Of a stretch of DNA of 64,000 nucleotides, positions 11,533 to 45,292 are shown piece by piece (the stretch's first letter is position 1; every line of letters starts with the position of its first letter). The stretch comes from an uncultured Nitrososphaerota archaeon. GTDB taxonomy: Archaea > Thermoproteota > Nitrososphaeria > Nitrososphaerales > Gagatemarchaeaceae. The stretch spans positions 160,001 to 224,000 of the forward strand of contig OY969807.1 of assembly GCA_963703285.1 (NCBI GenBank), written 5' to 3'. A program made the position numbers and the translations under genes. The notes below the pieces were generated by a model. It was not told the DNA's origin and did not search any database. It saw only the letters and a program-made list of their open reading frames with translations.

Positions 11533-11817
11533 ATGAAGCAGAACCGAAGGGGACTGCCTATGGTCAACATATTCCTTAGCCTGTTCTGGTCATTCATGGC
11601 AATAGCATTCCTGATTCTTTCCATTCACACTCAGAGGTTGCGCAAGAACATCCACGGGAAATTGCAATCTATCAAGGTCATAACTGAAACCGGCCAGCTT
11701 GCTTTTCCGAACCTCGCACCCTTAGAAGAGATAGTTAGGGACATCCTGATAGCTGAAATCGTGGTCTTCTTGTTATCGATTGCAGCGGCGATTGTAGGAC
11801 TTCTTGGCGCCGTATAA
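11533..11817 (+). CDS. Small 2-TM hypothetical protein
   Basis: Two hydrophobic segments. Confidence 0.6.
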   Translation: MKQNRRGLPMVNIFLSLFWSFMAIAFLILSIHTQRLRKNIHGKLQSIKVITETGQLAFPNLAPLEEIVRDILIAEIVVFLLSIAAAIVGLLGAV

Positions 11818-12042
11818 TCAGACGGAACAGCTGAATGAGGCTGCTCAGAGATGCTCATTAGTCGGGTGGTAAGGCTCTCAAGGCGGAGAGGAACCTGGAT
11901 CACCTATCCCCTTCGCCCGAATTCGACATCAATCAACTGCCGAACCTCGTCAGCTACTTTGACTTCCCTCTTCGTCCATGAGGTTGGTGTTGCATCAACA
12001 AGCAAGAGGCAGGAATTGCTTAAGAGGCAAGCTGCGACTTGA

Positions 12043-12888: not shown

Positions 12889-13085
12889 GGTCTTACTGTC
12901 CTAAACGGTGAAATGGCTCTGCATCAGATGGTCGAGGAAACGCATCACCATTGGATAGAAGACAAGAAGATTTGGAATGATATTCTGGGCTGAGCAGATT
13001 CAAAAGGGAATCCAGCTTTGGGCTGTTTGGTACGTGGGCCATTAAATAAGTGGCCCCAAGGGAGGGAAATGCATGGTGTCTATGA

Positions 13086-13805
13086 ATGGCTGAATCCGAA
13101 ACTGCCGGACCAGTCCGTTCGTTCTTCGACAAGAGATACACGTTTCCCGGTTACACTTTCCTGCTAGTAGTAACACTGGCGCTGGCGAATAGGGTTGTTG
13201 GCTTCGTCGGGAATTCAGGAGGCCAGACCGCCACACTCATTCTGGGAGTGGTATTGCTGTTGGACGGAGCGCCGCTGGGTTTCCTAATCTCACAGCCTTG
13301 GTTTGTAATCCTGAACCACTATGTTAAACCCAACTCCCTCTGGGTGAACAACATCAAGAGCGCGGATTCCAGTTTGAAGGAGGACACAAGCATGGCCCTT
13401 GTGGCCGGAGACCTCCTGGTCTTTTCTGAACAAAAGCAGACCGAGATGAAGGAATACTTGAGGAGGAGGATTGACCTGGTTAACCTGATGGGTTCAATCA
13501 TGTTAGCCATTCCGTTCGCAACTGTCGCTTCCTTCGTATTGGATAGATTGTGGAAATCCACACCGCCCAACCCATCCTTCAACCACGCAGTCTACCTGAT
13601 GTACTTCCTTCTAGTTTTGTTAGAAGCCACGATTTACCTCGCATATCGGTCCACTAGGCGGGAATGGGATCTAGCGTCGTGGGCAATGATGAGGGAAGCC
13701 ATAGACAAAGACACCCCAGCATTCAAGAGCCTTGTGCAAAGGTTAGCAGAGGACGCCAGGAAGCAAACAGAACCGAACAAATTGGCTCAACCTACCAAGA
13801 GCTGA
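13086..13805 (+). CDS. Hypothetical 4-TM membrane protein
   Basis: 239-aa ORF with hydrophobic helices. Confidence 0.7.
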   Translation: MAESETAGPVRSFFDKRYTFPGYTFLLVVTLALANRVVGFVGNSGGQTATLILGVVLLLDGAPLGFLISQPWFVILNHYVKPNSLWVNNIKSADSSLKEDTSMALVAGDLLVFSEQKQTEMKEYLRRRIDLVNLMGSIMLAIPFATVASFVLDRLWKSTPPNPSFNHAVYLMYFLLVLLEATIYLAYRSTRREWDLASWAMMREAIDKDTPAFKSLVQRLAEDARKQTEPNKLAQPTKS

Positions 13806-14016
13806 CTTGAGGGTGCGTGAAGAGCACCACAAACAATGCTCGAACTTCATTAAGACTTCTTTCTATACTTGCTTTGATACTAACACCGTGATCTTCAAAA
13901 ATGAGAAGCGTTGGGAACCCACACGGGGGCTAGCCCCATCGGACCTAGCTCTGAAGGAAGAGTTTTTGGCAGGACTCGCAGCGAACCTTACCTATTGGAG
14001 CCCCTAAATATACGTG

Positions 14017-14904
14017 TTAGCTACTTGGCGCGATAGCAACCCGTCCAACGTCTCGCCAGTCAATGGATTCGATGAACCCATCTAATCGTCTGAGTATCAG
14101 ACGGCTCGCGATATGACCGACTACGCCCCGGATTGGCTCTCGCGTTTGATTCTTTCCTTTTAGCGCAACTTCGATTGTTAAACCAGTATCAGCGAAGTAT
14201 CTAAGAAAGAAAAGATCTTGGAAGTGGAAAACAAGGCGATCAGTGAACCGATGAAACACGAACAAGAGAATTGCGAATGACGGTACAAAAACTGCTACGG
14301 AAAAGAGAAAGCTAGATGATTCCAGCGCCGCATACGTCGCCGCACGATTCGCCCCGACGTCAAATGCGAACGTCCTGAAGACGAGCGCAAGAAAGAAGAG
14401 TAGTACAAGAGTCGAGTACAGAAAAGTGGATTTGACGCATGAGTAAAGGAGCAGTAATCCGTTAGAAGGCGAGCGTATACTCGGCTCTTTCAGCACACGA
14501 TTAATAGCGAAAGTCGATAAAAAGGCCATGGTCACCATTAACACAAGCAGTACTAGTACAGCGTAGCTAACCACCGAGTAAGTGACCACAGGACCATAGA
14601 CTAGTGCTAGGTCTACTAGAATCAGCCCGGTGATGAAGACGAGAAAATTGGTCTCTTGCAGAAGAATGGTCCTGAGCTTGGTCTTGCCCTTTACGAATCT
14701 GGCAGGAGTTCGAACCAACCAGTAGAAATTGGAGAAACCTCCGTTGCACTCCGCCAGAAGCGATAGTATCTTGTTTCTCGCCGATGTTGTGTTCTCTGGT
14801 GAGAGGAATTGTCCCTGTCCCGCTCGCTCGACCAAGACTACGAGAATCGAGACTACGGATACCCCGAGGTATATCAGGTAAAGTGCGTCAGTGAGTGTTA
14901 CCAT
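14017..14904 (-). CDS. Hypothetical polytopic membrane protein with small beta-rich C-terminal domain
   Basis: 295-aa ORF, about 5 TMs. Confidence 0.7.
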   Translation of the reverse strand: MVTLTDALYLIYLGVSVVSILVVLVERAGQGQFLSPENTTSARNKILSLLAECNGGFSNFYWLVRTPARFVKGKTKLRTILLQETNFLVFITGLILVDLALVYGPVVTYSVVSYAVLVLLVLMVTMAFLSTFAINRVLKEPSIRSPSNGLLLLYSCVKSTFLYSTLVLLFFLALVFRTFAFDVGANRAATYAALESSSFLFSVAVFVPSFAILLFVFHRFTDRLVFHFQDLFFLRYFADTGLTIEVALKGKNQTREPIRGVVGHIASRLILRRLDGFIESIDWRDVGRVAIAPSS

Positions 14905-15139
14905 TCAGAGAACACAGGCGATCCCTACAAGATGATGACAGAGCTTGATAAGCTTGCCACGGAACATCGTTCCCCGAAAGTGCAATGCGTAGAAGGCAAG
15001 AAGTCAAGTTGGAAAGCATGAGTACGCTCCCAAGCCATCGAATCCTGTGCGAGAGCGTCGGCCGATTCTTCGGAGGTCTCGCAGTTTGGGAGAATTGGCG
15101 ACGCGACCTACGAAAAGCACGAAGCCAAGAACCCAATTC

Positions 15140-16138
15140 CTAGCGTGACGAGACCCGTAGGAGATAGTCGCAGACTGTTTCGGTGGTTTGGAGAACGAGC
15201 TTTCCCTCGCCAGGATTGGCTTTGAATCGATCGTGAACGTCCTCGCTGATGTAAGAATAGAAACTTGAAATGAATGTCTCAGTCCATTTGTCTATCTTTT
15301 TGTTGGCCCTCAGCTTCGTGAGGTCATTTCCGAACTTGTCAGTTTTCCCAACTGTGTGTTCCATCGTGTACTCCATCACCTGTTCCAATACAGACCGACA
15401 ATTCTTGACAGCGTCCTCGGGATTGCCCTGAATCAGTTTGGTATCAGCTTGCGAAAGCAACTCGCTGACGGAGTTTAATCCTCGCTGTGCTAGCTTGCTT
15501 CTTAGTTCCGTAATTCTCACAAGAGGTCGAACTGCGGCCGGTTCTATCTCCGTACCTCCGAGAACAGCGACCATAATCTTCTTGATTAATTCCGTTGCTT
15601 CAATCTGAGCATCACTAATGTGCTGACCGAGCTGGTCTATGCCGCCCTGCTGTGCGATTATGAAGTACATCACGGGCTTCACTAGAATCTCGGCTTCCAT
15701 GCGACCTCCTTGCTCGTGGTCGAAGATTATGCTGACTTCATTGGGTAACCCGGGACGCGCATTGCTGAGTTGTTTGAAATAGTCGTCCGACCTATCGAAG
15801 AACCGGTTCCTCGGAGCAGGAAGCTTCCTAACAAGAATGATTGACTGACCCACCGACGCACCGCCCCATAACTCGACCTGACCGCCGTAATTGAGCGATT
15901 TTACAACCTTCTCAAGAATCTCATCGACCGCCATGTAAGGCATCCCATATCTAGCTCTAACTACAAGCTGCTCTAACTCGGGCCGCCTGTAAGCATCCTT
16001 GGGGAATCTCTTCGACAGCTCGCGCTGCTTCCCAAACATGTACGCGATTACCGCGACCAGAATTAGCAGGATAACCCATGTTAAAGTGAGAGATGAAGAT
16101 TCGGTCTGAAGAACGAACGAGGTGGGTCCTACAGACAT
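15140..16138 (-). CDS. TM-anchored protein with C-terminal HEPN/Abi_C-like helical domain
   Basis: N-terminal TM; EDAVKNCRSVLE...YISEDVHD...ETVCDYLL pattern. Confidence 0.6.
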   Translation of the reverse strand: MSVGPTSFVLQTESSSLTLTWVILLILVAVIAYMFGKQRELSKRFPKDAYRRPELEQLVVRARYGMPYMAVDEILEKVVKSLNYGGQVELWGGASVGQSIILVRKLPAPRNRFFDRSDDYFKQLSNARPGLPNEVSIIFDHEQGGRMEAEILVKPVMYFIIAQQGGIDQLGQHISDAQIEATELIKKIMVAVLGGTEIEPAAVRPLVRITELRSKLAQRGLNSVSELLSQADTKLIQGNPEDAVKNCRSVLEQVMEYTMEHTVGKTDKFGNDLTKLRANKKIDKWTETFISSFYSYISEDVHDRFKANPGEGKLVLQTTETVCDYLLRVSSR

Positions 16139-16284
16139 TTGTCGCTCGCCAAGCGGCTAAGAAAAGACGGCTAATGAACCTAATCGGGGTGTAATCCAAT
16201 CGGGCCCGCTACCATGCAGGTCCGCCTATGCTAGAGGCTATGGACATCAGGGCAGCGATGAGCATCAAAGCCGATTGATTCTCG

Positions 16285-17637
16285 TCATTTCTTAGCGGAA
16301 GCGGCCTTCCTCTGGAGAGCCTCTCGAACAGACCTCTTGAACTCCGGGTTTTGAAATAGTTTGTTCATTATCTCATCAGACTTCCTTTGCTTCTCACTGA
16401 CCTCGGCTTGTCTTGACTCCGTTTTTCCAAGGCGATCAGCAAGAATCTTTACCTGTTCTTGAAGCTCATTATTCTGCTTTGTCAAGGAAGCAACCAAGCC
16501 CTTCGTTGAACCTTCACGCTCTCTAGCATTCACTTCTGATTCGTAGACAAGCTTCCATTCGTCAGTAACGGTAAGTTCGGGAACAGCCCTCAGATAATCG
16601 TTGAGCATATCATCCTCTGTCGGCCGGTTATAGCTCTCCTTAAGCCCGGTGTCGTGGTCTTCAAGCATCTCGACATGAAGACTCTTCATGCTTCTCTCAC
16701 AGGTCGTGTCGAAGAATTTCCTGAAACCGTGAGTTGCCTTGAACGGATGCCTCCGGATGCCGGCAGGCAACTTCTCCCTCAGGCCCGCGCTAACGATAGC
16801 GGCGGTAACGAACTTCTTAACGACCCTAGAGTTCATCGGGAGAGGTCTCGTCGGCCCACCAGACCCGCCTTTGTCGTTGTACAGAAGGTCTCTAATCACG
16901 GGGGAGGCTGGAGTAATCTTTTCACCTTGAGTTCCGCGATACTGCATGTACTCCGCAACTGCCGCATAAGCTTCCGGCGTCACAAAGGTATTGTACCATC
17001 TCTTCGACTTCGTGTTGTAAGCTCTCAACTTTGCCGCCACGAGTTTGTCGTTCCTTTCGACCTTCTCAAAGTTGCCCCATTGCATGAAGTCCCAGCTTCC
17101 GACCCTGATGCCGGAAGACAGCATAACCAGAACGACAGGCTTGATTCGTCTGTCAGGATACTGAAGAATTTTCCTGACCTCCTCAAGGGAAGGCGGACGG
17201 TCGTCGGCAGCGTGCCTGCCCTTGGGCATTTTCTTTGAGAGCTTGGCCCAGTTGATTGGTACATCATTCATTGTGCAGAACAACTTCAACGGCTTCATGT
17301 ATATGCTGACGGTGCTGGCGGCAATCTCACCGGCCTCAACACGGTCCTTGACTTCTCTAAGAAAGGAGTCAACAGTGCTTGTCGCCCACTCTGGCTCCTT
17401 CTTCGACCTGCTTACGAACTTGCTGGCAAGCCCACGTGTTGCCTCCTGAATCTCGCGCTCGGCCTTCTGGTCAATTTGCATGCCTTGGCGACCGGTTGGC
17501 AGAAACCCGTTTTCGGCACCATAGACCCACGAAAGGAACTGCCTCAACCTAAGCTCATACTTGCGCCTAGTGGTTGGACTCCCGATGGCATCATAGAACT
17601 CGGTCATGGGATCAAGCGCCTCTTTCTCCGTCAGCAT
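16285..17637 (-). CDS. int: Tyrosine recombinase/integrase with C-terminal coiled coil
   Basis: SSGIRVG (R), HGFRKFF (HxxR), EDH...SY catalytic set; adjacent to tRNA-Gln. Confidence 0.93.
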   Translation of the reverse strand: MLTEKEALDPMTEFYDAIGSPTTRRKYELRLRQFLSWVYGAENGFLPTGRQGMQIDQKAEREIQEATRGLASKFVSRSKKEPEWATSTVDSFLREVKDRVEAGEIAASTVSIYMKPLKLFCTMNDVPINWAKLSKKMPKGRHAADDRPPSLEEVRKILQYPDRRIKPVVLVMLSSGIRVGSWDFMQWGNFEKVERNDKLVAAKLRAYNTKSKRWYNTFVTPEAYAAVAEYMQYRGTQGEKITPASPVIRDLLYNDKGGSGGPTRPLPMNSRVVKKFVTAAIVSAGLREKLPAGIRRHPFKATHGFRKFFDTTCERSMKSLHVEMLEDHDTGLKESYNRPTEDDMLNDYLRAVPELTVTDEWKLVYESEVNAREREGSTKGLVASLTKQNNELQEQVKILADRLGKTESRQAEVSEKQRKSDEIMNKLFQNPEFKRSVREALQRKAASAKK

Positions 17638-17691
17638 GAGCTATCGCATCAACGCAATATAAAGAGGATAATAAAAGCACCAAGATAGGAG

Positions 17692-17764
17692 TAGCCCGAC
17701 TAGGATTCGAACCTAGGTCAAGGGCTCCAGAGGCCCCTATCCTTGGCCACTAGACGATCGGGCT
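17692..17764 (-). tRNA. tRNA-Gln(CTG)
   Basis: Cloverleaf: acceptor AGCCCGA/TCGGGCT, anticodon loop CT-CTG-GA, GGTTCGAATCC. Confidence 0.97.
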
Positions 17765-33300: not shown

Positions 33301-33395
33301 GCCCCGGTAGTGTAGCCCGGTCAAGCATGTTACCCTCTCGTCGATTAGTTCTCGGGAGATAGGTAGCGACGTGGGTTCAAATCCCGCCCGGGGCA
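33301..33395 (+). tRNA. tRNA-Glu(CTC) with canonical 37/38 intron (33341-33360)
   Basis: Acceptor GCCCCGG/CCGGGGC; BHB CTCT-CG|T...GGAG-AT|A. Confidence 0.95.
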
Positions 33396-33482
33396 TCCCT
33401 ATTCAATTGAGCACGAAATCTTCCGCCTCGGGAGGGGATTTGAACCACAAAGTTGGAGATTTGAACCTAAAGTGACGTGCCC
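33382..33482 (+). repeat. ~101-bp cassette left end, repeated at 37187-37287
   Basis: Manual alignment gives about 6 mismatches. Confidence 0.92.
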
Positions 33483-33882
33483 CCCTCAGGAAATTGTGAG
33501 CGGGCCAGAGGGATGCGCCTAATGTCCTGAGCGAATACATGGAAACCCCATGTTGTCTCGGGCCTGGGTTCGTATCGGAAAATTCGTCCGTTTCCGCTTG
33601 TGACTTCTCTAATGATACTGGGACAACACTGGCGCATGACCCTGTTCGCGTAAGATTAATCGAAGGCGGCTCGTTCCAAGGCCATGTTGCGCCCTCTGGT
33701 TCAGATGTCCGTTTTGCGATTTTCTCGGGCGCGCACTATCCGGCGATTACTTGCGGCTCATCTAGGAACCCTCGTTTTGATTCGCGTTCCAAACGTCATC
33801 ACCATCAACCAGAAACCGCTAAGCAGTCGCCAGCACGAACCGGACAGGGGGAAGCGGAGACTCTTGAGTGCCTGCAGTGCCT

Positions 33883-36813
33883 TCACGCAAGTGTGAGATT
33901 TGAATCACTCAATCCCTTGGCTCCGCCTACCCGTCTCAGGATGCGATCCCTTACATCGATTATGCCGACGTTTCCGTGCGGGCAAGCCTCGACGCAATCA
34001 CCGCAACCGACACATGAGATTCTGTTGGAGTACCCCTTCCTGAGAAGGTCGGCGACAAGCGGGACGGCGATAGGACATGAGGTCTCACACTCTCTTGTTT
34101 CACATCCTGCACAGATCGATGTGTCATTTGCCCGGATTCTGAAGAACGCCTTGTTGAAGATACCCGATAGAGTTCCGAAGCCGCACCAGCCCTGCCTGGC
34201 GCAGCTGTATGCGCCGAAAGCGGGGGTTAGGAAATAGAAGACCCACCAAACGTAGTTCAGAACGAACATCCCGTAGAAGTCGAGCGGGTTGATTGTTATC
34301 ATGCCAATCACTATCGGCGAGAGGAACCCAGTCTCCTGCAGAGCGAACGCCCCAAACGAGAGGACCATCAAAGAGAAGGAGAGCCACCTTAGGAAGCCCC
34401 AGACGCGAGGGTGGTCTCCCGAGGGTTTGAACTGGTCGTAGTATTCATTCGTCCACATGTGCGCCGCCATGCACACGAGGTTGCACTGCGCCCGCCTTCC
34501 GAAAAGTACGGATGCGGCGATGATGGCGCCGATTGATACGATGAATAACAGAAGCGGAACTGAAAAGATCATGTCGCTCATGCCGAATACGTAGAATGGA
34601 GTGTAGAATGGTATCAGGACAACGAAGAGGGGGATTCCAACGATGATAGCCAAGGCCCAGTTTCTAACCCTCCTGTCTCCTGCGAATCTGTATCTCTGAA
34701 GAACCAGATAGCTCATCTCGGACCCCATCATAATGACGTAGAAGGGTGACATCGTGGTCATCATTGTGAGCGCGAATGAGGACCAAAAGTACGCGAAGGG
34801 TGTGCTCACGCTCAACCCCATCTGGAAAGCCATCACGCTCATCTTTGCGGGATTCCAGGGGAAGAGCCACCACAGGGGGTTGCTGAGATTCATGGGCCCG
34901 GACAAGTTAAGTCCTAACAGGGAAGTCGTGGCGGTTCCCGGGAAGATGGAAGTGGTGATCGACAGGCCGATGGAGGTCGCGGCGAAGCTCATGGCGAGTT
35001 CGGCTCCGTTGATCAGCACCAGAAGCAGGAAGCTGCTCGAACGGTACCACGAAACCGATCTGGAGTCCAATCTCTGGGTCACGAGAAAGAAATAGGCTAC
35101 CATTGAGACAACCATGGCGGCTGAAAGCAAGGCGAAGCTGTTGTAGATCGCATAGAACGAAAGGCCCAGCATCATCAGAAGGTCCGAGGCGGCGAGGCCC
35201 ATCGCGAGTGCCTGGGCGTCGAACGTTCTTCTTCTCATCTGAAGCAGATAGAGGAGCACGATGTTTGCCATCATGACGCCTGCAGAGACGATTATGCTGA
35301 TCAGAACGTACTCATCACCAAAACTGGCGAAGAAGTTCGGCATCAGGACCATGGACAGAGCGAATGTGAAGAGGCTCGCTTGAGGAAGGTCTCTCTTCCT
35401 GTCCGAGATTAGCAGAAAGAAGAGCGCGTCGCCTGCCATCATCACAGCGAAGTCAAGATTGTTGACCGAGATCAGGAGTGGTGAGGAGTTGTGAGGAAGG
35501 AACGCCGACCCGTAGAGGAATCCCATGGAGAGCTCGAAAAGAGCTAGAGCTATCACCAGAGGGATTGTGTACTTGAAATGCCTCCTCCACTCCTGGATTT
35601 CGCCGCGCGCTAATCGCGGAACGAGAAGGACCGCTCCAGAAGCGACGAGGACCGAAGCGCCGAGCAGGAGACTGCCGCCCCAGAAGAGGAGATAGGAGAT
35701 GATGACGGTGACGACGCCCAGGTAAAGAGTGACCGCGAGCGAGAGAAAGTAGAGCCTTGACTGTATCTGGTCTCTCCTGAACATCAGGTAGATAAAGAAG
35801 AACCCGACCATCATCATGTCCACTACGAAGAAATCCATCAGGACCTCCTCGAATGGTCCCGTGAAGAATTTCAGAACCCCGCCCATGAAGAACTCTGCGA
35901 CGAAGATTCCCCCCAACAGCGCGGGAGCCCAGAGCGGCTTGTTCTGCCACCCAATCAGCGGGGGATTGGTGAGCCGCTTCTCGTCGAGCACTATCGTGAA
36001 GTAGATTGACATCTCTGCGACTATCGACAGGACGAACAGGAGGACATCACCGTTCATGAGCCAAAGGAACAGCCCCGCCATCATGAGGCCGTACGTGCCC
36101 ATGAGGCTCACGATGTACTTCGAAGCGCCATCAGTCGTGGGGCGGTTCATGAAGACGTAGTATAGCGCGACGATCATTGCGATGGTCATCACCGTGCCGT
36201 TTCCGATCAAACTGCTCCAAGACCACGTCGTGCTCGCTATTGCGGTGGGAGATAGGACCATGACGACGGTCTGGATTGCGACGAGCCATCGGAAGATGCT
36301 CGGGAAGTTCCTCCCCACTAGGAAGAGCGTGACGGCCATCTCGGAGGCCATGGTGAAGATGAACCAATAGGTGCCCATCGAGTCAATGAGCGCCCAGAAG
36401 GCGCTCCCGGAGGTCGACGCGGCGCCGGAGAGGATCGCGAAGGTCCAGCCCATGAAGACCTCGGAGAGAATCGCGAGACAAATCACAGAGGAGATCGCTA
36501 TCGTCCTGCTGGAGATCGCGCGGCTTTCGCGCGTCTCGTCTATGGGCCGATCGCCTCTGATGAGAGCGCTGAGTATCGGGATTAGCCCGATGCTCATCGA
36601 TATCATGTTGAGCGCGACTAGCTCGAAGAGCATGACGATGCCTGGGAAGTAGAGGTAGACGACGGCGCTGGCGAACATCGACGCCATCATCACGAGGAGG
36701 AAGATGACGAGGCCTGCGTCCGACAGAGTCTTCATAGTAGACCCCTTCTTCAGCAGCCATGCTGTGAACACGGCCATCGAGCCGGCGATGAGCCATAGGA
36801 CTTCCGCACCCAT
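33883..36813 (-). CDS. 976-aa Met-rich polytopic membrane protein with C-terminal NapH/polyferredoxin-like 4Fe-4S domain
   Basis: More than 20 hydrophobic segments; CNLVC, C...WCGFG, CAGCETRECETSCP and CVGCGDCVEACP motifs. Confidence 0.85.
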   Translation of the reverse strand: MGAEVLWLIAGSMAVFTAWLLKKGSTMKTLSDAGLVIFLLVMMASMFASAVVYLYFPGIVMLFELVALNMISMSIGLIPILSALIRGDRPIDETRESRAISSRTIAISSVICLAILSEVFMGWTFAILSGAASTSGSAFWALIDSMGTYWFIFTMASEMAVTLFLVGRNFPSIFRWLVAIQTVVMVLSPTAIASTTWSWSSLIGNGTVMTIAMIVALYYVFMNRPTTDGASKYIVSLMGTYGLMMAGLFLWLMNGDVLLFVLSIVAEMSIYFTIVLDEKRLTNPPLIGWQNKPLWAPALLGGIFVAEFFMGGVLKFFTGPFEEVLMDFFVVDMMMVGFFFIYLMFRRDQIQSRLYFLSLAVTLYLGVVTVIISYLLFWGGSLLLGASVLVASGAVLLVPRLARGEIQEWRRHFKYTIPLVIALALFELSMGFLYGSAFLPHNSSPLLISVNNLDFAVMMAGDALFFLLISDRKRDLPQASLFTFALSMVLMPNFFASFGDEYVLISIIVSAGVMMANIVLLYLLQMRRRTFDAQALAMGLAASDLLMMLGLSFYAIYNSFALLSAAMVVSMVAYFFLVTQRLDSRSVSWYRSSSFLLLVLINGAELAMSFAATSIGLSITTSIFPGTATTSLLGLNLSGPMNLSNPLWWLFPWNPAKMSVMAFQMGLSVSTPFAYFWSSFALTMMTTMSPFYVIMMGSEMSYLVLQRYRFAGDRRVRNWALAIIVGIPLFVVLIPFYTPFYVFGMSDMIFSVPLLLFIVSIGAIIAASVLFGRRAQCNLVCMAAHMWTNEYYDQFKPSGDHPRVWGFLRWLSFSLMVLSFGAFALQETGFLSPIVIGMITINPLDFYGMFVLNYVWWVFYFLTPAFGAYSCARQGWCGFGTLSGIFNKAFFRIRANDTSICAGCETRECETSCPIAVPLVADLLRKGYSNRISCVGCGDCVEACPHGNVGIIDVRDRILRRVGGAKGLSDSNLTLA

Positions 36814-37420
36814 GCTCTCCTATCAGCACTCGGTCGAGGCTACTGGAAGCTGTTTTAATACATAATGTCCGATGTGGCGACGGGGTCTCTGTCTTCCCCA
36901 CGGGGGAAGGGCGGAGTCATCGGGGGCACAGCCCTGGCCTTCACGCTGCCCGTCTACATCTACACGCTGGCTCGATTCCGCACCTCGCAACCTCAATGAA
37001 GCTCAGGCTCTCGCTCAGAAGACGAGGGAACCGGCATCGCACCCAGGATAGAACGGAGCCTTTGCGGGGTTTTCTCTATCACGCTAGGGATGTCTTCTTC
37101 TTTGGGAGTTCAGAGTGATGTCTCGCGAATAGCGGCTGGGCGCAGGGTTCGTAGGGCCCGGAGGGGATTCGAACCTAAAGTCAGACTCCCGCCCGGGGCA
37201 TCCCTATTCGATTGAGCACGAAATCTTCCGCTTCGGGAGGGGATTTGAACCACAGAGTCGGAGATTTGAACATACAGTGACGTGCCCTAAGCTGACTGTG
37301 AGCGGGATCGACGGCAATCGTCAAGCATACTTCCATCAGATGGAATCGAATGAACAGGATGATGGGCCGGAAGGGATTCATCGGGATGTCCGTATTGAAC
37401 CCCTTTAGGTTCTGCGAAGT

Positions 37421-37711
37421 CTACACCAAGCTATTTCCTCCCTCAGCCGCTCCAACTCGCCGTGGTCTCCCCTCGCCCCCTTCCTGCGGCTCTGGGTTCT
37501 CATCCGCCACCAGCCAATCACTTTCGCCCCGCTCGACTGCTTCCTCACTCCCGAGGCGCTTGAGGATGCTCTCAGCCCTGCGCCTATGGTACTCGTCAGG
37601 GACGGAGTAGGTTATGCCCGCTATCGCCACCGCTTCTATCAGCGAGACGCACATTTCTTCGTCGACGAACCCTATCCCCTGAACGAGCTTCGCATGCGCG
37701 ACGGATATCAT
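37421..37711 (-). CDS. Small hypothetical protein
   Basis: ATG with GGAGGT Shine-Dalgarno-like site upstream; divergent from 37803. Confidence 0.55.
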   Translation of the reverse strand: MISVAHAKLVQGIGFVDEEMCVSLIEAVAIAGITYSVPDEYHRRRAESILKRLGSEEAVERGESDWLVADENPEPQEGGEGRPRRVGAAEGGNSLV

Positions 37712-37802
37712 GGCGTACCTCCTCTTTCCATCCCTCCCCTGAATAACATACCAAATAGGTTCAGTAATGATTTTATTTACGGGCGCAACCGCGGCTTATC
37801 AA

Positions 37803-38429
37803 ATGGTTAGGACCAGTATCGCCGTCGATAAGGCGATTGCTGACTCCCTAGCGGGGGAAGCGGCAAAGCAGAACAAGACTCTCTACGGGCTCGCTAACGA
37901 GTCTCTCGCCGATGTCCTGAAGATATGGAAGGAAGGGGGCTCGAGCAGGGATATATTCTCATCTTGGAGCTTCGGCCGAATCCTCAAGGAGACCGATTCT
38001 CTCCCGGTTCCTGGTCCTCTAATAGAGAAAATTGTGAGGAGGATGCATTCGATAGACAGCAAGTGGTTACTGAATGCTATGTTTGATGAGGGGGTGAACA
38101 TTGGATCCTACCTGAAGCTGCGCTTCCCAGATTTCCAAAACTTGATTCCGATTTTGTTTGACCTGCAGGCATTTCTCCCGGTTAAGAGGGTTGAGTTTGA
38201 GCGGATCAGTCCAATTACAGATAAGATGATAATATCCATCCGTATCCTGGGAGCGGGTCCCTCTCCTGAGTCGACAGAATGCGCAGAGCAATTCCTCAAA
38301 GGTCTATTGTCACAGTATCCCTACAGAATAACTGATACAAGAGTTACCGAAGGCATCATTGAGGTTACAGTCACGAATGAGGAAGGAGAGCGAGACTCAG
38401 GAGGCTACATCAAGACCGGGTTGATTTAG
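37803..38429 (+). CDS. Ribbon-helix-helix-like N-terminus plus putative ligand-binding (V4R-like) domain
   Basis: MVRTSIAVDKAIADSLAGEAAKQNKTLYGLANE; TTTATTTA box upstream. Confidence 0.6.
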   Translation: MVRTSIAVDKAIADSLAGEAAKQNKTLYGLANESLADVLKIWKEGGSSRDIFSSWSFGRILKETDSLPVPGPLIEKIVRRMHSIDSKWLLNAMFDEGVNIGSYLKLRFPDFQNLIPILFDLQAFLPVKRVEFERISPITDKMIISIRILGAGPSPESTECAEQFLKGLLSQYPYRITDTRVTEGIIEVTVTNEEGERDSGGYIKTGLI

Positions 38430-39009
38430 CAAATCGCTCCTTCTCATCACTTCCCCAAGATAGGTACTCTGCGCGTATCGGGTGAGACGAGATGGCTCTG
38501 ATTTCATGACCTCCTATTTGGACCACTTGCACAATTACGAAGCAGATGAATGGATGTTAGCAACTTCACCATGCATCAAATCTGGAAGGCGCACAGGAAA
38601 CAGCCACACGGGGACAGGAGGGCAAAACTGAGTGAAGATGATTGTCACCTGCATAGACGAGAAGAACGGGATACGGTCCCTCGATAGGAGCGAGACTATC
38701 CTTCCCTTGCGTCCCGTGATGCCTCAAGGCATACCCTAGGATTAGAAGCGCGGGGACGAATAGGCCTATTGACGACCCTGAACGTACTCGACGGCACTGT
38801 CGACAAGGAAAGGCAAGGGAGTTCACATTCTTAAGAGCCAAGCCGATGCCCTCCGACAAGAGTTTCCTCTGCGCGACCTGCTTCTCCTCATCAGTTCTGG
38901 ACGACGAAGCGCAAGGGTATCAACAAGTAGCAACAAACGTGCAAACATGTATACGCCAACCCGAATGGGTTCGGGCAAATGCACATAACATGTAGACAGA
39001 GTTAGACAA

Positions 39010-39804
39010 TTGTTCACATTGACTGAAAACAAGGAGCGAAGGAAGTCTGTATCTGTTTCTCAACCTGAGAAAATAGCTACCAGGCCTGTCAGAACGACAG
39101 GCGGTGTAATTCAAGACGTCGCAAATACCAAGGTGAGCAGACGGGCCCTGATGAAGGGCACCGCGGCCGCCGCCGTGGTCGTTGGCGTCTCTACCTTTGC
39201 CATGAACGCACCTAAGGTCAAGGAACAGGGATCCTCCGCTTCCTCGACCTCTTACGTCACGATATCCCCTACACAAAGCGTCACGACCACCATTGCCCCG
39301 CCGGCGCCGACAGTGGCGGCAACTCCATTTGACGCGCGAACGATTACGCTCAACGTCAATGGTACGGACTATACCCCTACCGTGGAACCTAGGAGGATGC
39401 TCGTCGACGTGCTTAGAGAGGACCTCGCCCTGATAGCGACGAAGAAGCCGTGTGACAGGATGTGCTGCGGAGGATGCACCGTCTTGATTGATGGCGTGCC
39501 GCATGAATCGTGCACAATCTTGGCAGTGAGGGCAGTCGGCCATACCATCGTGACTTCAGAAATCACCACGGGTGACGCAGTGGTGAACGCCCTGCAACAA
39601 GCCTGGGTAACGGCGGATGGGGGTCAGTGCAGCTACTGCGCGTCGGGTCAGATAATGGCCGCCACATACCTGCTGAAGACCAATACGAACCCGACGGTCC
39701 CTGAGATCAAGGCCGCATTGAGCGGTAACATATGTCGATGTGGAAACTATCTGCACATAATCGAAGCGGTACAGTCTGCCGCGGCGAGTCTAGGAGGTGC
39801 CTAG
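39010..39804 (+). CDS. Mo-hydroxylase 2Fe-2S subunit with Tat signal (PaoA/CoxS-like)
   Basis: SRRALMK twin-arginine motif; CDRMCCGGCTV...SC, QCSYC and GNICRC. Confidence 0.92.
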   Translation: MFTLTENKERRKSVSVSQPEKIATRPVRTTGGVIQDVANTKVSRRALMKGTAAAAVVVGVSTFAMNAPKVKEQGSSASSTSYVTISPTQSVTTTIAPPAPTVAATPFDARTITLNVNGTDYTPTVEPRRMLVDVLREDLALIATKKPCDRMCCGGCTVLIDGVPHESCTILAVRAVGHTIVTSEITTGDAVVNALQQAWVTADGGQCSYCASGQIMAATYLLKTNTNPTVPEIKAALSGNICRCGNYLHIIEAVQSAAASLGGA

Positions 39805-42283
39805 AGCGATGAGCTCTTCCGTAGGTTCAAACGTAGGAACGGGCAACGGTCCCTTCAACCTGGTAGGAAAGTCTACGGTCAACAGACGCGCCACCTACAA
39901 CCAGATTACAGGTGTGCGAGTGAACCAGAGCGACATCCTTCCCGTTCACGTCGGGGCCTCGGCCTTCGTCTACATGGGCTACGTTACCTGCCCATACCCT
40001 AACGCGATGATCAAGAGCATTGATGTTAGCGCGGCGGAGGCGGCCGGAGCCCAGACGCTATCTGCCCTGGACACGGACTACCTTCCAGCATTCAATTACT
40101 ACTCCACCGCGAACGGCAGAAACCGGGGACCCCTCCCCTACCCCCAGTGTATGTACTCGGGCCAGCCCGTGGTCGCGGTCGGGGCTGCCACCCCAGACCT
40201 GCTCAACGACGCAATCAACCTGGTCAAGGTTGAATATGAGCCTCTCCCATACGTCTTCGACGCGGAGGGAGCGCTGGCGCCGGGCGCGCCTGTACTATGG
40301 CCAGGCGGCAACTCTCCAAATGGGGCTGCCGGCATAGACAACGGATATCCGCCGAGTGTGGCGGCCATCTCTTTCGGTGACGCGGCCGCAGCCATCGAGG
40401 CGGCCGACGCGGTCGTCACGCTCCCAACGCTGGACACTCAATTCGTCCAGCACTTCACGACCGAGCCCCGAGGGCTTGTCGCAGAATGGACAGCCAACGG
40501 CGGGGTCAATATCTGGAGCGACACCCAGTATGCCGCCTCCATACCGGCCATGATCTCCGCCTACTTCATGATACCGGCGGCCGACGTAGTCTGCAGAACC
40601 AACCTCGGTGGAGCCGACACAACAACGGGAAGCTGCGTTGTGGGTTGCGCCACCGGCAACAAGGTGTCTGGCGAAGAGTACATCACAGCGGTGGCGCTCT
40701 CGAAGAAGGCAGGGTCGCCTGTGAAATTCCTCAACACCAGATTCAATGACTCACTCGCCACAACTGCCCGCTTTCCGCAGCGCGCCTACGTCACGATTGC
40801 CGGGACGAGCGCCGGAAAGATTACGGCGGTGAAGGCCTCCGTGTACACGAACGAAGGTGCGCTCGCCGGCGAGGATAATGAACTCAGCGAGTTCTACGCG
40901 AGCTACACCATTCCGAACGTCGACCTCGTGAGCTATTCTGCCAACACCAACGGATACGGCCAATCCGGTGCTATGCGCGATGTCGGCGAAAGCCAGTGCT
41001 CATTCTTCATGGAAACGGCTGTCGACATGCTTGCCGAGAAGCTGAACATAGACCCCGTGACATTCCGGCTCAACAACATGATAACAACGGGTTACACCGA
41101 CCCGGCCACAGGGACGGTCTACCCCAACACCGCGTTCGACCCCAGCACCGGACAAGCGTTCTCCGGATTCAGCGAGCCGGCCATCCAACTCAAGACAGCG
41201 GCGGCCTTCAACTGGAGCGGCAGATGGAAGGGCTGGGGAGTACCGAGCGGTACACCAATCAACTCTGGCGAAACCCAAGGTACAGGCCAGAAGCTGCGAG
41301 GGGTCGGCGTATCGCTGCTCTCTGCAAACAAGGGTAGCTTTGCGTACGGCTCGGGCCAAATCTCGGTCGATCCCACGGGCGCAATAACGGTCTACTCAGG
41401 GATAATGGACCACGGAGGCGGAGGAAACACGACCATACCGCTGATCGCTGCAGAGTGCCTTGGTCAGACAGACTTCAGCAACATGACTGTCGTCATGTCA
41501 GACAGCTCCCTCACGACCGACACACTGGGCACGTTCGGTAGCCTGGGGACGCGCGACGGAGGCATGGGCCAAGTCGTGGCCGCCCAGAATCTTGCGAGCC
41601 AGTGGTTCCCGATCGTCGCCGCCAAGCTAGCACCCGGGACGCAGCCGGCCAACCTCGCGTTCGGGACCAACACGATCTACGACACGACAAACCTCAGCAA
41701 CTCGATGTCGTTCAAAGCCGCGGCCGCTCTCCTCCCCGCCACGATTACAGGCAACTCGGGGTTGGTGTTCGGGCCTTTCAACCTTACGTACCGCGTCGGC
41801 GGCACGAAGATGTGCGAAGTCGAGGTGGACACGGAGACCGCGGACGTCCGCGTGATAAACGCGACGTGCGGAATTGGTCTCGGTCGCGTTATCTTCGCGC
41901 GTGGCGCGGAGGGCCAGGTCCAGGGTGGCTTCATAGGACACGGGATAGGCGAATCACTCACCGAAGAGCACATAAACGACTCGTCAACCGGGCTCAAGTA
42001 CTCCGGAGGCGCCCTTAACGCGAACTTCCTTGACAACAAGGTACCCACGATAACGATGGCGCCCGACACTCTGACCCCCGTGTATGAGGAGTACGTCGAC
42101 CCAGTTGGGCCCTTCGGCGCAACCGGAATCGGGGAGCCCTGCCTCATTGGCGCCATACCGTGCATCCTGAACGCCCTGAGCAACGCACTGGGCGGGTACA
42201 GGTTCACCAAGACCCCGGTGAGGAAGGAGGACATCGTAACGGCGCTGCAGTGGATGGAGACGAACCGGAAGCTCCCATCATAG
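39797..42283 (+). CDS. Xanthine dehydrogenase family molybdopterin-binding subunit
   Basis: GAMRDVGE, DPVTFRLNN, EVEVDTET, GQVQGG and GPFGATGIGE motifs. Confidence 0.93.
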   Translation: MPRAMSSSVGSNVGTGNGPFNLVGKSTVNRRATYNQITGVRVNQSDILPVHVGASAFVYMGYVTCPYPNAMIKSIDVSAAEAAGAQTLSALDTDYLPAFNYYSTANGRNRGPLPYPQCMYSGQPVVAVGAATPDLLNDAINLVKVEYEPLPYVFDAEGALAPGAPVLWPGGNSPNGAAGIDNGYPPSVAAISFGDAAAAIEAADAVVTLPTLDTQFVQHFTTEPRGLVAEWTANGGVNIWSDTQYAASIPAMISAYFMIPAADVVCRTNLGGADTTTGSCVVGCATGNKVSGEEYITAVALSKKAGSPVKFLNTRFNDSLATTARFPQRAYVTIAGTSAGKITAVKASVYTNEGALAGEDNELSEFYASYTIPNVDLVSYSANTNGYGQSGAMRDVGESQCSFFMETAVDMLAEKLNIDPVTFRLNNMITTGYTDPATGTVYPNTAFDPSTGQAFSGFSEPAIQLKTAAAFNWSGRWKGWGVPSGTPINSGETQGTGQKLRGVGVSLLSANKGSFAYGSGQISVDPTGAITVYSGIMDHGGGGNTTIPLIAAECLGQTDFSNMTVVMSDSSLTTDTLGTFGSLGTRDGGMGQVVAAQNLASQWFPIVAAKLAPGTQPANLAFGTNTIYDTTNLSNSMSFKAAAALLPATITGNSGLVFGPFNLTYRVGGTKMCEVEVDTETADVRVINATCGIGLGRVIFARGAEGQVQGGFIGHGIGESLTEEHINDSSTGLKYSGGALNANFLDNKVPTITMAPDTLTPVYEEYVDPVGPFGATGIGEPCLIGAIPCILNALSNALGGYRFTKTPVRKEDIVTALQWMETNRKLPS

Positions 42284-42297
42284 GAGAGTGGATCGAA

Positions 42298-43335
42298 ATG
42301 AGAAACGAACTAAACCAATTCGGATACCTGGTGCCGACCTCGGTTGGCGACGCGGTATCACTCCTGACGAAGTATGGAGGGAACGCGAGAGTCATCGCTG
42401 GTGGGACGGACCTGCTCTACCTGATGAAGAACCAAGTGGATACGCTGACACCGGAGTACGTGGTAGACATCTCGGGGCTCGGACTCGACGAAGTAGAGTT
42501 CAGCCAGAGCGCCGGCCTGACCATCGGAGCGACCGCGAACGTCCTCACAATCTCGAATGACCCGAACGTCAACCAGTACTATGGTGCGATCGCAGGGGCG
42601 GCCACGGGCCATCCAAACCAGATAGCCAGTCAGGCCACCGCCGGAGGGGAAATCTCACAGGAAGTGTGGTGCTGGTACCTGCGTAACAACTACGACTGCT
42701 GGAGGAACGGCGGGAACGTCTGCTATGCGGTCGCCGGAGACAACCGTTACTACCACAGCATCTTCGGAGGCAACCTCTGCTACGCGGTCCACGCTGGCGA
42801 CCTGACGACGGCGCTCTTCGCGCACGACGCCACTCTGACGGTGCAGGGTCCGGGAGGCTCGAGCAAGATGACGATGGACCAGTTCATGCCGGGCGTCACC
42901 ATAGTGGACGGCCGCGTCAAGGAGAACAGCCTCCGCTACAACGAGATAGTGACCCAGATCAACGTGCCTACGCCCGCGTCAGGGACGCTCAGCACGTTCT
43001 TCAGGATGACCGACAGAGCCGCCATCGACTTCCCATTGGCGAGTGCGGCTGTCGTCGCGACGACCAGCGGGAGCACAATCTCCAGCGCCAGGGTGGTGGT
43101 GGGCCACGTCGCCAACAAGCCTATCAGGGCATCCTCGGCAGAATCCTACCTCGCCGGAAAGACACTCCCTCTGTCAGAGGACGTCATTGCGCAGGCGGCG
43201 AAGAACGCCCTGTCGGGCGCCACACCACTGACGCACCAGAGCGTCGGGGCGAACGGCTTGGGTCAGGGGAACGCGTTCCGAGTATTCATCGCGCAAGGAG
43301 TGGTGAAGAACGCCCTGCGGGCCCTGAACTCGTAG
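42298..43335 (+). CDS. Mo-hydroxylase FAD subunit with 4Fe-4S insertion (PaoB/HcrB-like)
   Basis: IAGGTDL; CWY.R....C...GG..C...CYAVH. Confidence 0.92.
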   Translation: MRNELNQFGYLVPTSVGDAVSLLTKYGGNARVIAGGTDLLYLMKNQVDTLTPEYVVDISGLGLDEVEFSQSAGLTIGATANVLTISNDPNVNQYYGAIAGAATGHPNQIASQATAGGEISQEVWCWYLRNNYDCWRNGGNVCYAVAGDNRYYHSIFGGNLCYAVHAGDLTTALFAHDATLTVQGPGGSSKMTMDQFMPGVTIVDGRVKENSLRYNEIVTQINVPTPASGTLSTFFRMTDRAAIDFPLASAAVVATTSGSTISSARVVVGHVANKPIRASSAESYLAGKTLPLSEDVIAQAAKNALSGATPLTHQSVGANGLGQGNAFRVFIAQGVVKNALRALNS

Positions 43336-43340
43336 AGTCG

Positions 43341-43604
43341 ATGGCTCTGAGTTCGGCTCCAAGCGGCCTTCCAGTCAGAGAGCAGGGTGAGCCGGAGGAC
43401 CTTGCTCTCTCCGAAATTTTCGAGAGACACAAGAATACATGGGTGGCGATGACAGTTACCGGAAGGGACAGGAACTTTCAGCCAACAAGAGGTAGGGTGC
43501 TGGCGACCGACTTGGACCAGTACAAGCTGAGGCAGAAGATTTTGAAATACGCCGACATCTGCATCCTCTATGCTGGTGAACCTCAATTCCCTCTGTTCCT
43601 TTAA
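43341..43604 (+). CDS. DUF5678-like small protein
   Basis: HKNTWVA...GRVLA.D.D pattern; upstream of retropepsin-like genes. Confidence 0.6.
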   Translation: MALSSAPSGLPVREQGEPEDLALSEIFERHKNTWVAMTVTGRDRNFQPTRGRVLATDLDQYKLRQKILKYADICILYAGEPQFPLFL

Positions 43605-43659
43605 CTTCTTCTTGCATGCCCATTATCAGAAGACCTCTTCTGTAGGTCTCCGACAATAT

Positions 43660-44052
43660 TTGTGCGCGATAGGGGCCGCAACGACAGCGTGAGAGAGTCT
43701 AACGCGCCGGCCGATGTCGGCCCCGAGTACTGTGTCATGCCTAGAGTCGACGCCCACCAGCTCGGCTATCGAGAGGCCGCGCTCGATACCCGATAACGCC
43801 CCCCCCCGCCAACGCAGTAACCTTTTCAAGCAATACCGGGGATTACACGGCGGCAAGATTAAGATGGCGCGGGTGGACCCGGGAAGTGTGTCCTTCAGAG
43901 ATGTCGACCTTGTCGCCCCTCATCCTCCTCAGGTGACCGGATTCGACGTCATACTAGTACAGAGCCTGTTGAAGTTCATGAAGCTTGAATTCGATTGTTC
44001 GGTTGGAAGGTTGAGGATAGAAGAGTTAAGAAAGAAGAGTGTGGAACCGTGA
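43660..44052 (+). pseudogene. Frameshifted paralog of the downstream retropepsin-like gene
   Basis: VRESNAPADVGPEYCVMPRVDAHQLGYREAA* and, in another frame, GSVSFRDVDLV...FDVILVQSLLK align with 44049-44546. Confidence 0.6.
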
Positions 44053-44546
44053 GATTCGCTCTAAAGTATCCCATGTTGGTAACCGTTCGAGTAGAAGGTC
44101 AAAACGGTCGTGTGAGGGAGTTGAGCTCGGTCATCGATTTCAACGCGCCATACTGTATGGTCCTTTTTCAAGATGGGATAGACCTTGGTTATCCCGAGGC
44201 GGCCAATAAACCTGTCAACTTGGGGCGGATCCACCCTGATAGGGTGCCTTGGTTTACCACCATGCGTGGTATAGAGCGAGGCATCTTAGTGACTCTGAGC
44301 AAGGTGTCGCTCGGTAGCTTGGTTGCGGAGAACGTGGACGCTGTGGTGCTCGAACTGGCACATCCACGCTTCCACACGTTCGAGATGATTCTGGGCCGGA
44401 CATTCTTGAAGAATTTCAAGCTCACAGTTGATATGAAGAATGGAAAGGACGGTTACCTTTCTCTGCTCCCGTCAGGAAAGAGGCGACCTGGTCCGCCAGC
44501 CCCCTCCCACCCCGAGATTCAACGGATGAATGCCCGAAGCGAGTAA
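44049..44546 (+). CDS. Retropepsin-like aspartic protease fold protein (DFNA instead of DTGA)
   Basis: VIDFNAPY...MILGRTFLKNF. Confidence 0.75.
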   Translation: MRFALKYPMLVTVRVEGQNGRVRELSSVIDFNAPYCMVLFQDGIDLGYPEAANKPVNLGRIHPDRVPWFTTMRGIERGILVTLSKVSLGSLVAENVDAVVLELAHPRFHTFEMILGRTFLKNFKLTVDMKNGKDGYLSLLPSGKRRPGPPAPSHPEIQRMNARSE

Positions 44547-45292
44547 TTTTGCAGTGAGGGGATTCCAGCAGGTTGCGCCCGCGTAGCTCCGCAAACACAG
44601 TAGTCGAGGCCGACAAGGGTTACTGCGACGGGCCACTCATGTAGACGGTACGGGCGATTCGGCAGGGTACAAACAAAGTTCTGAAAGACAGCATTGACGC
44701 TACGAGCAAGTCACGCAGCTCCCCGTAGAACAGAGGTGATTCAGCTCACCGCCAATTGGATCGCACCCGTAGCTCCAATCCATCCTGCACCGCTGGCTGA
44801 GTGAGAAGAATCTGTCGGAGATATGAGGGTCCTGAACTCGACCAAGCCATGCTCAGGATTTGATCCTCGCCGCATAACCCCTCCAACAGTCTTCGCCTCT
44901 TCATTTCCAGATTCATCACGTGCTTCTCGAGCGACGGTTCCTCAGCCTCCCGGCGACCGCACTTAACCCTGGGAATCAGCATGGGACGCTCAAAATTCTA
45001 AGCAAGCCTCTTCTGGCCCGCGCAGTACTCCTGGCGATTTCCACCTTGCCCGAAGTCGTTGTCTCAGTGTAATTCGAAGGGGCTCTTTGCAGGTTACTGC
45101 GCAAGGAAGGGATTCGAACCTAAAGTTGGACTCCCGCCCGGGGCATCTCGCCACCATTTCAAGCGTTTTTCAGCCGTAAATCAGTCTCCTGCAGTTGCCC
45201 GAGTCGCGGATCAATCGGCCAGGCGTAACCCAGCGATCTCCCTGTTACAAAGCCATAAATTGACCGCGCTGCGACGTGTGTAAGGTTCCGGT

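Follow-up and report, generated by a model that had tools for sequence, protein, structure and literature searches.

Tandem units without an integrase and with common ends at the tRNA-Glu genes of an uncultured Nitrososphaerota archaeon

The window, that is, the whole stretch of DNA analysed here, covers 64,000 nucleotides of an uncultured Nitrososphaerota archaeon (assembly GCA_963703285.1, contig OY969807.1; G000:C1:160001-224000 in the handles used below). The genome, G000, is one 2.25-Mb contig without N. Behind the tRNA-Glu(CUC) gene of the window lies an array of two units which are framed by repeats of the tRNA 3′ end and by common end sequences. The features are listed below with window positions and strand. 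LE and RE denote the left end and the right end of a unit, att an attachment site, and ORF an open reading frame.

33301..33395, plus strand: tRNA-Glu(CTC) gene with a 20-nt intron, attB and the left part of attL (ARAGORN; Rfam RF00005, 46.8 bits)
33382..33397, plus strand: core copy 1, from the last base of the T-loop through the 3′ T-stem strand, the acceptor strand, and the discriminator to 2 nt beyond
33398..33506, plus strand: left end LE1, terminating at GTGAGCGGG
33407-33424, plus strand: vestigial integrase-start-like box of LE1
33434-33446 and 33455-33467, plus strand: two 13-nt boxes of LE1, exact inverted copies of the tRNA T-loop region 33374-33385
33883..36813, minus strand: cargo of unit 1, a 976-aa membrane protein with a C-terminal 4Fe-4S dicluster domain
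37160..37186, plus strand: right end RE1, with the box GGGGATTCGAACC at 37163-37175 and then an 11-nt spacer
37187..37202, plus strand: core copy 2, the junction of unit 1 and unit 2
37203..37376, plus strand: left end LE2, with boxes at 37239-37251 and 37260-37272
37767..38429, plus strand: 220-aa protein with a ribbon-helix-helix (RHH)/CopG-like N-terminus
39010..43335, plus strand: molybdenum hydroxylase operon of the xanthine-dehydrogenase / aerobic CO-dehydrogenase family (Pfam, NCBIfam)
39010-39804, plus strand: 2Fe-2S subunit of this hydroxylase of unit 2, with a twin-arginine translocation (TAT) signal
39797-42283, plus strand: Mo-binding large subunit of the same hydroxylase
42160-43335, plus strand: FAD subunit of the same hydroxylase
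43341..44982: small ORFs of unit 2 with 87 aa, 112 aa, 183 aa (weak match to clan-AA aspartic proteases), and 78 aa (minus strand)
45105..45131, plus strand: right end RE2 with the box AGGGATTCGAACC
45132..45147, plus strand: core copy 3 (attR), followed by the chromosomal flank

It was found that the 16-nt core, TCCCGCCCGGGGCATC, has exactly three copies in the window, at 33382, 37187, and 45132, all on the plus strand. With up to two mismatches allowed, the window has four matches where 0.12 are expected, and four were reached in none of 100 shuffles. The cores delimit two units of 3.8 kb (unit 1) and 7.9 kb (unit 2), whose contents are unrelated. On the 3′ side of cores 1 and 2, 101 nt are 94% identical (33382-33482 versus 37187-37287) and GTGAGCGGG follows slightly beyond in both copies, making a common LE of about 120 bp overall. 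On the 5′ side of cores 2 and 3 stand the same 27 nt, the RE, and the 43-nt blocks at 37160-37202 and 45105-45147 are 93% identical. An earlier note on the window had described three direct copies of a 16-bp tRNA-Glu 3′ core, a left end common to cores 1 and 2, and a right end common to cores 2 and 3; the exact search, the shuffles, and these alignments bear out both descriptions. The two boxes of LE1 form inverted repeats of 12 and 10 nt with the T-loop region of the tRNA gene, 100% complementary. The G+C content is 0.49-0.62 within the units and 0.60-0.65 outside, and the flank beyond core copy 3 is syntenic with two related genomes, G031 and G036, from about 46.4 kb. The 20-nt intron of the tRNA-Glu(CUC) gene (33341-33360) is missing in the tRNA of some relatives; contigs of the public runs X5 and X7 pass from 33340 directly to the 3′ exon, and the tRNA-Glu of L183 is 75 nt in length, without an intron.

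Unit 1 has a single gene only, and no ORF of at least 200 aa in the two units lacks an assignment. In line with the earlier note, the contents of the units are unrelated to each other and consist of redox or metabolic cargo. When all ORFs of this length in the two units were scanned, neither Pfam nor NCBIfam found recombinase, transposase, or replication families. Both arrays of G000, of which the second is presented in a later paragraph, were compared by tblastn with three integrases of the lineage and then with the integrase of a tRNA-Gln island of the window (see below); the best E value was 0.18. In 14 LE-type units, drawn from 8 genomes, none of these four integrases had a match at E <= 0.01, and 4 metagenome contigs likewise had none at E <= 1e-3. 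In the whole of G000 there are one PF00589 gene and one unrelated PF00239 gene, while the SSV-type integrase model PF16795 has 0 matches and no integrase fragments lie at the unit ends. An SSV-type (class I) element with a split integrase was therefore rejected, the more so as the conserved ends measure only 27 and about 120 nt. Thus, the statement of the earlier note that the units encode no recombinase, transposase, or replication gene agrees with Pfam, NCBIfam, and tblastn alike, and the decayed integrase inside each unit that it had named as a refutation was found by tblastn in none of the 14 units.

The 220-aa RHH-like protein of unit 2 is likely a regulator and not a recombinase. Its family (195-224 aa, with a conserved GAG...ESTEC motif) is without a Pfam or NCBIfam model and has six paralogs in G000, namely the window gene at 37767-38429 and genes at 394331, 777261, 970114, 978581, and 1479203. 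Three of the six adjoin molybdenum-hydroxylase clusters, one of these outside both arrays, and so the idea that the protein serves a cassette function was rejected. As for the hydroxylase itself, G000 has at least 6 large-subunit paralogs, including 948121-950595 and five further places; two are in the tRNA-Glu arrays, another lies shortly beyond the second array's flank, and a further one is broken into two parts at 772745-775040.

The docking site is not confined to one tRNA. A second gene of G000, at 980675-980765 on the minus strand, has the identical tRNA 3′ end. Its ARAGORN label is wrong, and the anticodon loop CTTTCGA indicates that it is probably tRNA-Glu(UUC). An array spans from 980765 to 956098, with a full LE (81% identity), 24.6 kb of cargo, and an RE with a one-mismatch core at 956098. 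The cargo comprises NosD/beta-helix, Fer4, NrfD, a second molybdenum-hydroxylase set, a MobA-like protein, a methyltransferase, a TBP paralog, and a CDC48 paralog, with no recombinase among them. The earlier note had placed the stacking at one tRNA; this part has to be given up, since both isoacceptor genes have the same core and both bear arrays. In the interior of the second array, at 16.9 kb, an RE box is joined straight to the second LE box and the core is gone, which looks like a deletion between repeated boxes. The box GGRGATTYGAACC has six copies in the 2.25-Mb genome, five in the two arrays and one in a tRNA gene. The likeness of the two arrays extends beyond the LE proper: the LE2 stretch 37309-37376 and the left end in the second array just past the fused junction (genome 963638-963705) are 97% identical over 68 nt, with different cargo behind. 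The attR of the UUC array has a C directly 3′ of the discriminator where the cassette junctions have a T, which places the crossover within the 14-nt tRNA end. A 348-aa ORF running across the tRNA and the LE of this array (L012:12059-13105) was taken as spurious because its translation is of low complexity and matches no family. Paralogs of basal transcription factors were observed repeatedly as cassette cargo, TBP here and in G031 and TFB in G091, along with CDC48 (L011 7963-8520 and 5393-7561; L050 11109-12044).

Are the same ends found in other genomes? When the 96 other genomes of the family were searched, 14 had LE matches at E <= 0.01. Clear among these are G031, G036, and G026, which belong to the genus of the window, and G084, G085, G086, G091, and G092, which belong to a second genus. 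RE plus core is present on 4 metagenome contigs, two of which have the full RE-core-LE junction. The LE copies have one architecture and one inner boundary common to the two genera, while the core and the first LE box match each genus's own tRNA-Glu: TCCCCCCC... goes with GGGGATTTGAACCCC in the second genus, and TCCCACCC... is found in G036 and G026. The flank upstream of tRNA-Glu(CUC) is syntenic in G031, G036, G026, G085, and G092, and the flank downstream in G031 and G036; in the second genus, the matched chromosomal flank proteins are about 45-60% identical. Between these flanks, the content differs as follows.

G000, at tRNA-Glu(CUC): units 1 and 2, 11.8 kb
G031, at tRNA-Glu(CUC): a 5.6-kb LE/RE unit (CDC48, TBP) plus 0.9 kb
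G036, at tRNA-Glu(CUC): a 2.05-kb LE/RE unit (ABC-2 permease), then about 4.5 kb with DUF488, aquaporin, and a Rieske fragment

Further units carry ABC and MFS transporters, NosD, an ArsR-like regulator, proteins with Ig domains, a TFB paralog, GNAT, and one insertion sequence (IS). The unit size ranges from 2 to 17 kb, often with several genes and an own regulator, and in many genomes no element at all lies behind tRNA-Glu. Thus, relatives hold different genes or nothing at the orthologous site, which is the comparison that the earlier note had proposed; of the refutations it had named, that the ends never flank other cargo is contradicted both by the second array and by other genomes. Its central idea of a family of non-autonomous units with standard ends is backed by LE/RE units in at least 8 other genomes, with no integrase inside. 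In the public runs X2 and X5 (contigs), the unit 1 gene is present at about 95-99%, and the RE there is preceded by sequence unlike unit 2, which may hint at units changing place; a single 151-nt contig of run X2 reads RE-core-LE, compatible with a tandem junction or a circle. An LE pattern was also searched in 401 genomes of the order with a spacer one base too long, such that the window copies themselves need two mismatches; it returned G031 and G036 only, plus chance-like matches in G029, G173, and G344, and is uninformative on the range beyond the family. Three end patterns had no match in viral contigs. The possibility that LE is a structured RNA was dropped, as RNAalifold on 13 LE copies gave -8.6 kcal/mol for the plus strand and -5.8 for the minus strand and no convincing helix.

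Some side observations concern the same sites. The tRNA-Glu genes of the family are a hot spot for more end types (L100, L105, L142, L143, L146-L148, L150; L184). Other right ends read GGGTTTGTACCCATTTTCGGTCTAAA plus core and GATTTGAACATCGTTTCNCATGCCCCAA plus core, and arrays mix the end types. In the second genus, the sequence GATTCNAGCTTCTTTGG is common after the last core. The IS in G086 (L049 13335-14462, G086:C1) consists of a DDE_Tnp_IS240 transposase and a SWIM finger; it lies behind an LE, and a right end was not found there.

Two cases speak to how cargo changes place. A 5,057-nt CDC48/TBP block in the distal unit of the UUC array of G000 is 89% identical to the LE/RE unit at tRNA-Glu(CUC) of G031. 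Since the block sits at different tRNA-Glu genes in the two genomes while the outer flanks of both tRNA-Glu loci are the same, it moved as a cassette. The unchanged outer flanks of G031 also led to the rejection of an inversion of the chromosome between the oppositely oriented tRNA-Glu loci. A cluster of G031 resembling the hydroxylase of unit 2 was likewise rejected as the same cassette because it lies outside the array and its protein identity is only 61-75%. The second case is the unit 1 gene. An ortholog at 91% nucleotide identity is found in the metagenome-assembled contig L158 and in G031:C2, directly upstream of its paralog of about 690 aa. The context of this tandem pair corresponds to 1857.8 kb of G000, where the paralog alone remains. 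The unit 1 gene is more alike (91%) than the chromosomal stretches flanking it (75-83%), and in G019 its paralog stands directly behind tRNA-Glu(CUC) and an LE variant. The sequences suggest that a chromosomal gene entered a cassette, or the reverse.

The ends can be compared with those of elements that do have an integrase. The only PF00589 gene of G000 encodes 412 aa and starts 10 nt after tRNA-Leu(CAG), in a 7.7-kb element (G000:C1:1627269-1635070; L013, L059) with a 16-nt direct repeat at 1635055. Its right end reads ...GATTCGAACC, 13 nt, and then TCCCACCCCCCGCACC, and the block of identity extends as at tRNA-Glu from the last T of the T-loop to 2 nt past the discriminator. NCBIfam scores this gene as an integron integrase at 40 bits, against a cut-off of 265. 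The family of the 412-aa integrase occurs in 45 of the 96 other genomes, beside several tRNAs. Members that are 49-56% identical start directly behind the tRNA-Glu(UUC) core in G002, G015, G030 (frameshifted), G032 (degraded), and G033; G015, G030, and G032 came from 69 fetched core sites, and G002 and G033 were seen separately. The right ends of these tRNA-Glu elements read GGGGATTTGCACC, 13 nt, and then the core, and the box GCAAATCCCC within the first codons of the integrase gene is the perfect inverted partner of GGGGATTTGCACC. These integrase-bearing elements are without LE. The first about 30 nt of LE align with the ATG-NNN-NCA-AAT-C start region of the integrase genes, and the ATG is retained in the second genus; beyond this part, LE has the two inverted T-arm boxes where the gene would be. 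LE thus looks as if it opens with a vestige of about 20 nt of the 5′ end of an integrase gene. Given this vestige and an att geometry common with the integrase elements, the units are probably no independent innovation and look like a radiated deletion derivative: they probably go back to one ancestral integrase deletion from an element of this family, followed by radiation of the backbone. No intermediate form between the integrase-bearing elements and the LE/RE units was found.

The window has a further island, with an integrase-like gene. It spans 6322-17764 (11.4 kb, G+C 0.45-0.54) behind tRNA-Gln(CTG) (17691-17764, minus strand), and its borders are marked by a directly repeated 19 nt from the end of the tRNA, the second copy lying near 6322-6340. 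A 450-aa ORF (16285-17637, minus strand) starts 55 nt after the tRNA and matches neither Pfam nor NCBIfam. Its sequence shows R, HxxR, H, and Y in the order of a tyrosine recombinase, which makes it recombinase-like, and in the ESM Atlas it stands at 0.99 beside Nitrososphaerota 'phage integrase' clusters; the other ORFs of the island are without a family. A third tyrosine-recombinase-like stretch of the genome (G000:C1:2149289-2149777, 3.4 kb from tRNA-Asp) is 26% identical to the tRNA-Gln integrase over 184 aa, with E = 3e-6. An intact integrase thus adjoins attL in the islands at tRNA-Leu and tRNA-Gln and in the tRNA-Glu elements of 5 other genomes; it is absent from the LE/RE units.

I consider it moderately probable that the units form a single lineage in which the integrase was deleted but the att ends still work, in which the cargo has become diverse, and which moves in trans. 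A fixed attP would frame the cargo, composed of RE (one T-arm-like box plus 11 nt), a core of 14-16 nt identical to the 3′ end of both tRNA-Glu genes, and LE (the integrase-start vestige of about 20 nt plus two inverted boxes of the host T-arm). A tyrosine integrase of the tRNA-Glu-core family, borrowed from a helper that supplies it in trans, would bind the T-arm-like boxes and recombine a circular cassette with the tRNA 3′ end. Integration would restore the tRNA and leave core repeats, and repeated insertion would stack a tandem array. After a single origin by integrase deletion, the cassettes would have spread through two genera with changing cargo, and some units may have become fixed by the loss of junction cores. 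The sequences themselves show the anatomy of the ends, units devoid of an integrase, differing occupancy of orthologous sites, one cargo block at different tRNA-Glu genes, and att sites like those of integrase-bearing elements. Mobilisation in trans is likely, but like the circular intermediate, the kind of helper, and the origin in a single event, it is inferred.

Several points weigh against this reading. No helper was found. The recognisable integrases of G000 are at tRNA-Leu, at tRNA-Gln, and at 2149 kb, and none is at tRNA-Glu; with no helper of the tRNA-Glu type in the genome, its arrays may by now be unable to move, except if one of the resident integrases acts on them as well. G031 has arrays yet no member of the integrase family. 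Among the genomes examined, no cassette is stacked next to an integrase-bearing element at tRNA-Glu, and in the public runs, taken as assembled contigs, no circle, empty-site, or excision junctions were seen. The pairing of LE and RE is not constant, in that L185 has an RE without an LE and G092 has an LE with another right end. Together with the one coreless junction, this suggests that the arrays are fixed at least in part. Pfam PF00589 overlooks divergent integrases of the lineage, and an odd recombinase could escape sequence searches; because Pfam is partly blind, the absence of an integrase from units 1 and 2 also rests on there being no unassigned ORF of sufficient length. Units of relatives do have unassigned ORFs, of 451 aa in G086, of 439 and 430 aa in G092, and of 260 and 214 aa in G085. 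None of these five has recombinase motifs, and the 451-aa ORF, which lies beside an LE in G086:C1, was rejected as a helper for this reason and because it occurs in only 1 of 97 genomes. Finally, homologous recombination between the repeated ends would yield some of the same patterns.

This last process can be taken as an explanation in itself. Homologous recombination or gene conversion between repeated ends would shuffle the units, and no active site-specific recombinase would be involved. In its favour, LE copies of 100-190 nt with 81-97% identity are present in both arrays; the fused junction at 16.9 kb resembles the product of a deletion whose end points were the RE box and the first LE box; and a review of archaeal tyrosine recombinases describes how integrated archaeal mobile genetic elements (MGEs) standing in tandem exchange modules through homologous recombination (PMC8371274). 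But shuffling leaves the origin of the first copies unexplained, and also the exact match of the core with the tRNA, the integrase-type boxes that follow the host tRNA across genera, and the units of a second genus whose flank proteins are only about 45-60% identical. I regard this explanation as improbable. The arrays would be immobile fossils if they were ordinary eroded islands, each unit having lost its own integrase after integration, and the same review holds that integrated archaeal MGEs without an integrase presumably arose by such a loss (PMC8371274). The integrase-start vestige that opens LE, the coreless junction, and the lack of a tRNA-Glu-type integrase in G000 would fit. Independent losses, however, would leave differing end points, whereas the LE copies agree in architecture and inner boundary across two genera. 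No unit has integrase fragments, replication genes, or virion genes; LE is missing from those elements at this site that do carry an integrase; and the same ends frame many unrelated cargoes, with one block at two different tRNA-Glu genes. Erosion unit by unit is thus unlikely, if a little less so than shuffling.

Collapsed or chimeric joins at the repeated tRNA end could in principle have produced the repeats, and among the listed contigs of run X1 none reaches across the junctions of the units. Yet G000 is a single contig without N, and the same RE-core-LE junction or array recurs in independent genomes, in metagenome contigs, and in the 151-nt contig of run X2. The recurrence of this architecture in independent genomes and metagenome contigs makes an assembly artefact, which the earlier note had named as a danger, highly improbable.

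A further idea goes beyond the integrase-deleted lineage moved in trans, and I put it forward only tentatively. The tRNA-Glu genes may serve as docking sites where a backbone without an integrase collects genes of the chromosome and, helped by a borrowed integrase, brings them to other genomes or to the other site; made of parts of tRNA-integrating elements, it would be comparable to an integron in function. As far as their genes are concerned, the LE/RE lineage carries host-type ones only (redox enzymes, transporters, and TBP/TFB paralogs), and it is found at either tRNA-Glu gene in two genera of soil Nitrososphaerales. As surveys of archaeal mobile elements take integrases or hallmarks of viruses and plasmids as their starting point, such units go unseen. 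Integrase-less islands of archaea are usually dismissed as decay; the present family shows a recognisable lineage whose ends are fixed. If the cassettes do move in trans, they would offer genes a way to flow and to change place in a soil lineage that is abundant worldwide, and they would be archaeal 'hitcher' elements, a type known until now mostly from bacteria. The att site is short and defined (T-arm-like boxes, a 14-nt core, and inverted T-arm copies), which makes the idea of trans-mobilisation testable with few integrases. In the limited collection of literature searched, no account of an archaeal lineage of cassettes that lack an integrase and have fixed ends was found.

How do the units compare with known systems? 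Clusters of integron cassettes without an integrase (CALINs) can be moved in trans, according to excerpts of PMC11389934. Integron cassettes and CALINs resemble the LE/RE units as small cargo units with standard ends, in arrays without an own integrase. They differ in that the LE/RE units have no attC-type palindromes, no IntI, and no attI/Pc platform; the sole inverted repeat at the junction of units 1 and 2 is 9 nt at 89%. Moreover, the ends of the units are asymmetric, LE being different from RE, around a tRNA-derived core, and the units reach 2-17 kb. The earlier note had spoken of integron-style gene capture. This stands as a functional analogy only, with a hint of capture from the unit 1 gene; an attC-like site, an adjacent integrase, and a common promoter are lacking. 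Elements that exploit the host Xer recombinases (IMEX), such as the CTX/TLC arrays at dif, likewise encode no recombinase, insert at a specific site, and line up there in tandem with unrelated elements. In contrast to IMEX, the LE/RE units target a tRNA end and match the att sites of an MGE integrase family, not Xer/dif.

Like class II archaeal elements, the LE/RE units have the tRNA 3′ end directly repeated on either side, but they lack the intact tyrosine integrase next to attL. In excerpts of a survey of integrated MGEs in Thaumarchaeota, which began from integrases and hallmark genes (Krupovic et al. 2019, PMC6563490), the elements, of which the cryptic integrated ones are the most similar, come from the same phylum, use tRNA 3′ ends with direct repeats as att sites, form tandem arrays, and have cargo of cellular type such as transporters and redox proteins. 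The surveyed elements each carry an integrase, as far as these excerpts go; the LE/RE units carry none and would escape such a search.

The nearest concept appears to be that of the cis-mobilizable elements (CIMEs) of the ICESt1/ICESt3 family in streptococci, which excerpts of PMC5704250 describe as att-flanked and integrase-less, stacked by accretion, and moved by the integrase of a related element. Like CIMEs, the LE/RE units are flanked by attL and attR, here as exact 16-nt core repeats equal to the tRNA 3′ end; they have no integrase, excisionase, or transfer genes, consist of cargo only, and stand in tandem at one target. They may also stem from a deletion and rely on the integrase of a related element. 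Accretion with a helper, as in CIMEs, was not observed for the LE/RE units, and they have no known role of conjugation. They differ further in being archaeal and in having two tRNA-Glu genes for docking, and above all in forming a radiated lineage, with a fixed left-end module that has two extra T-arm-like boxes and with many unrelated cargoes in two genera.

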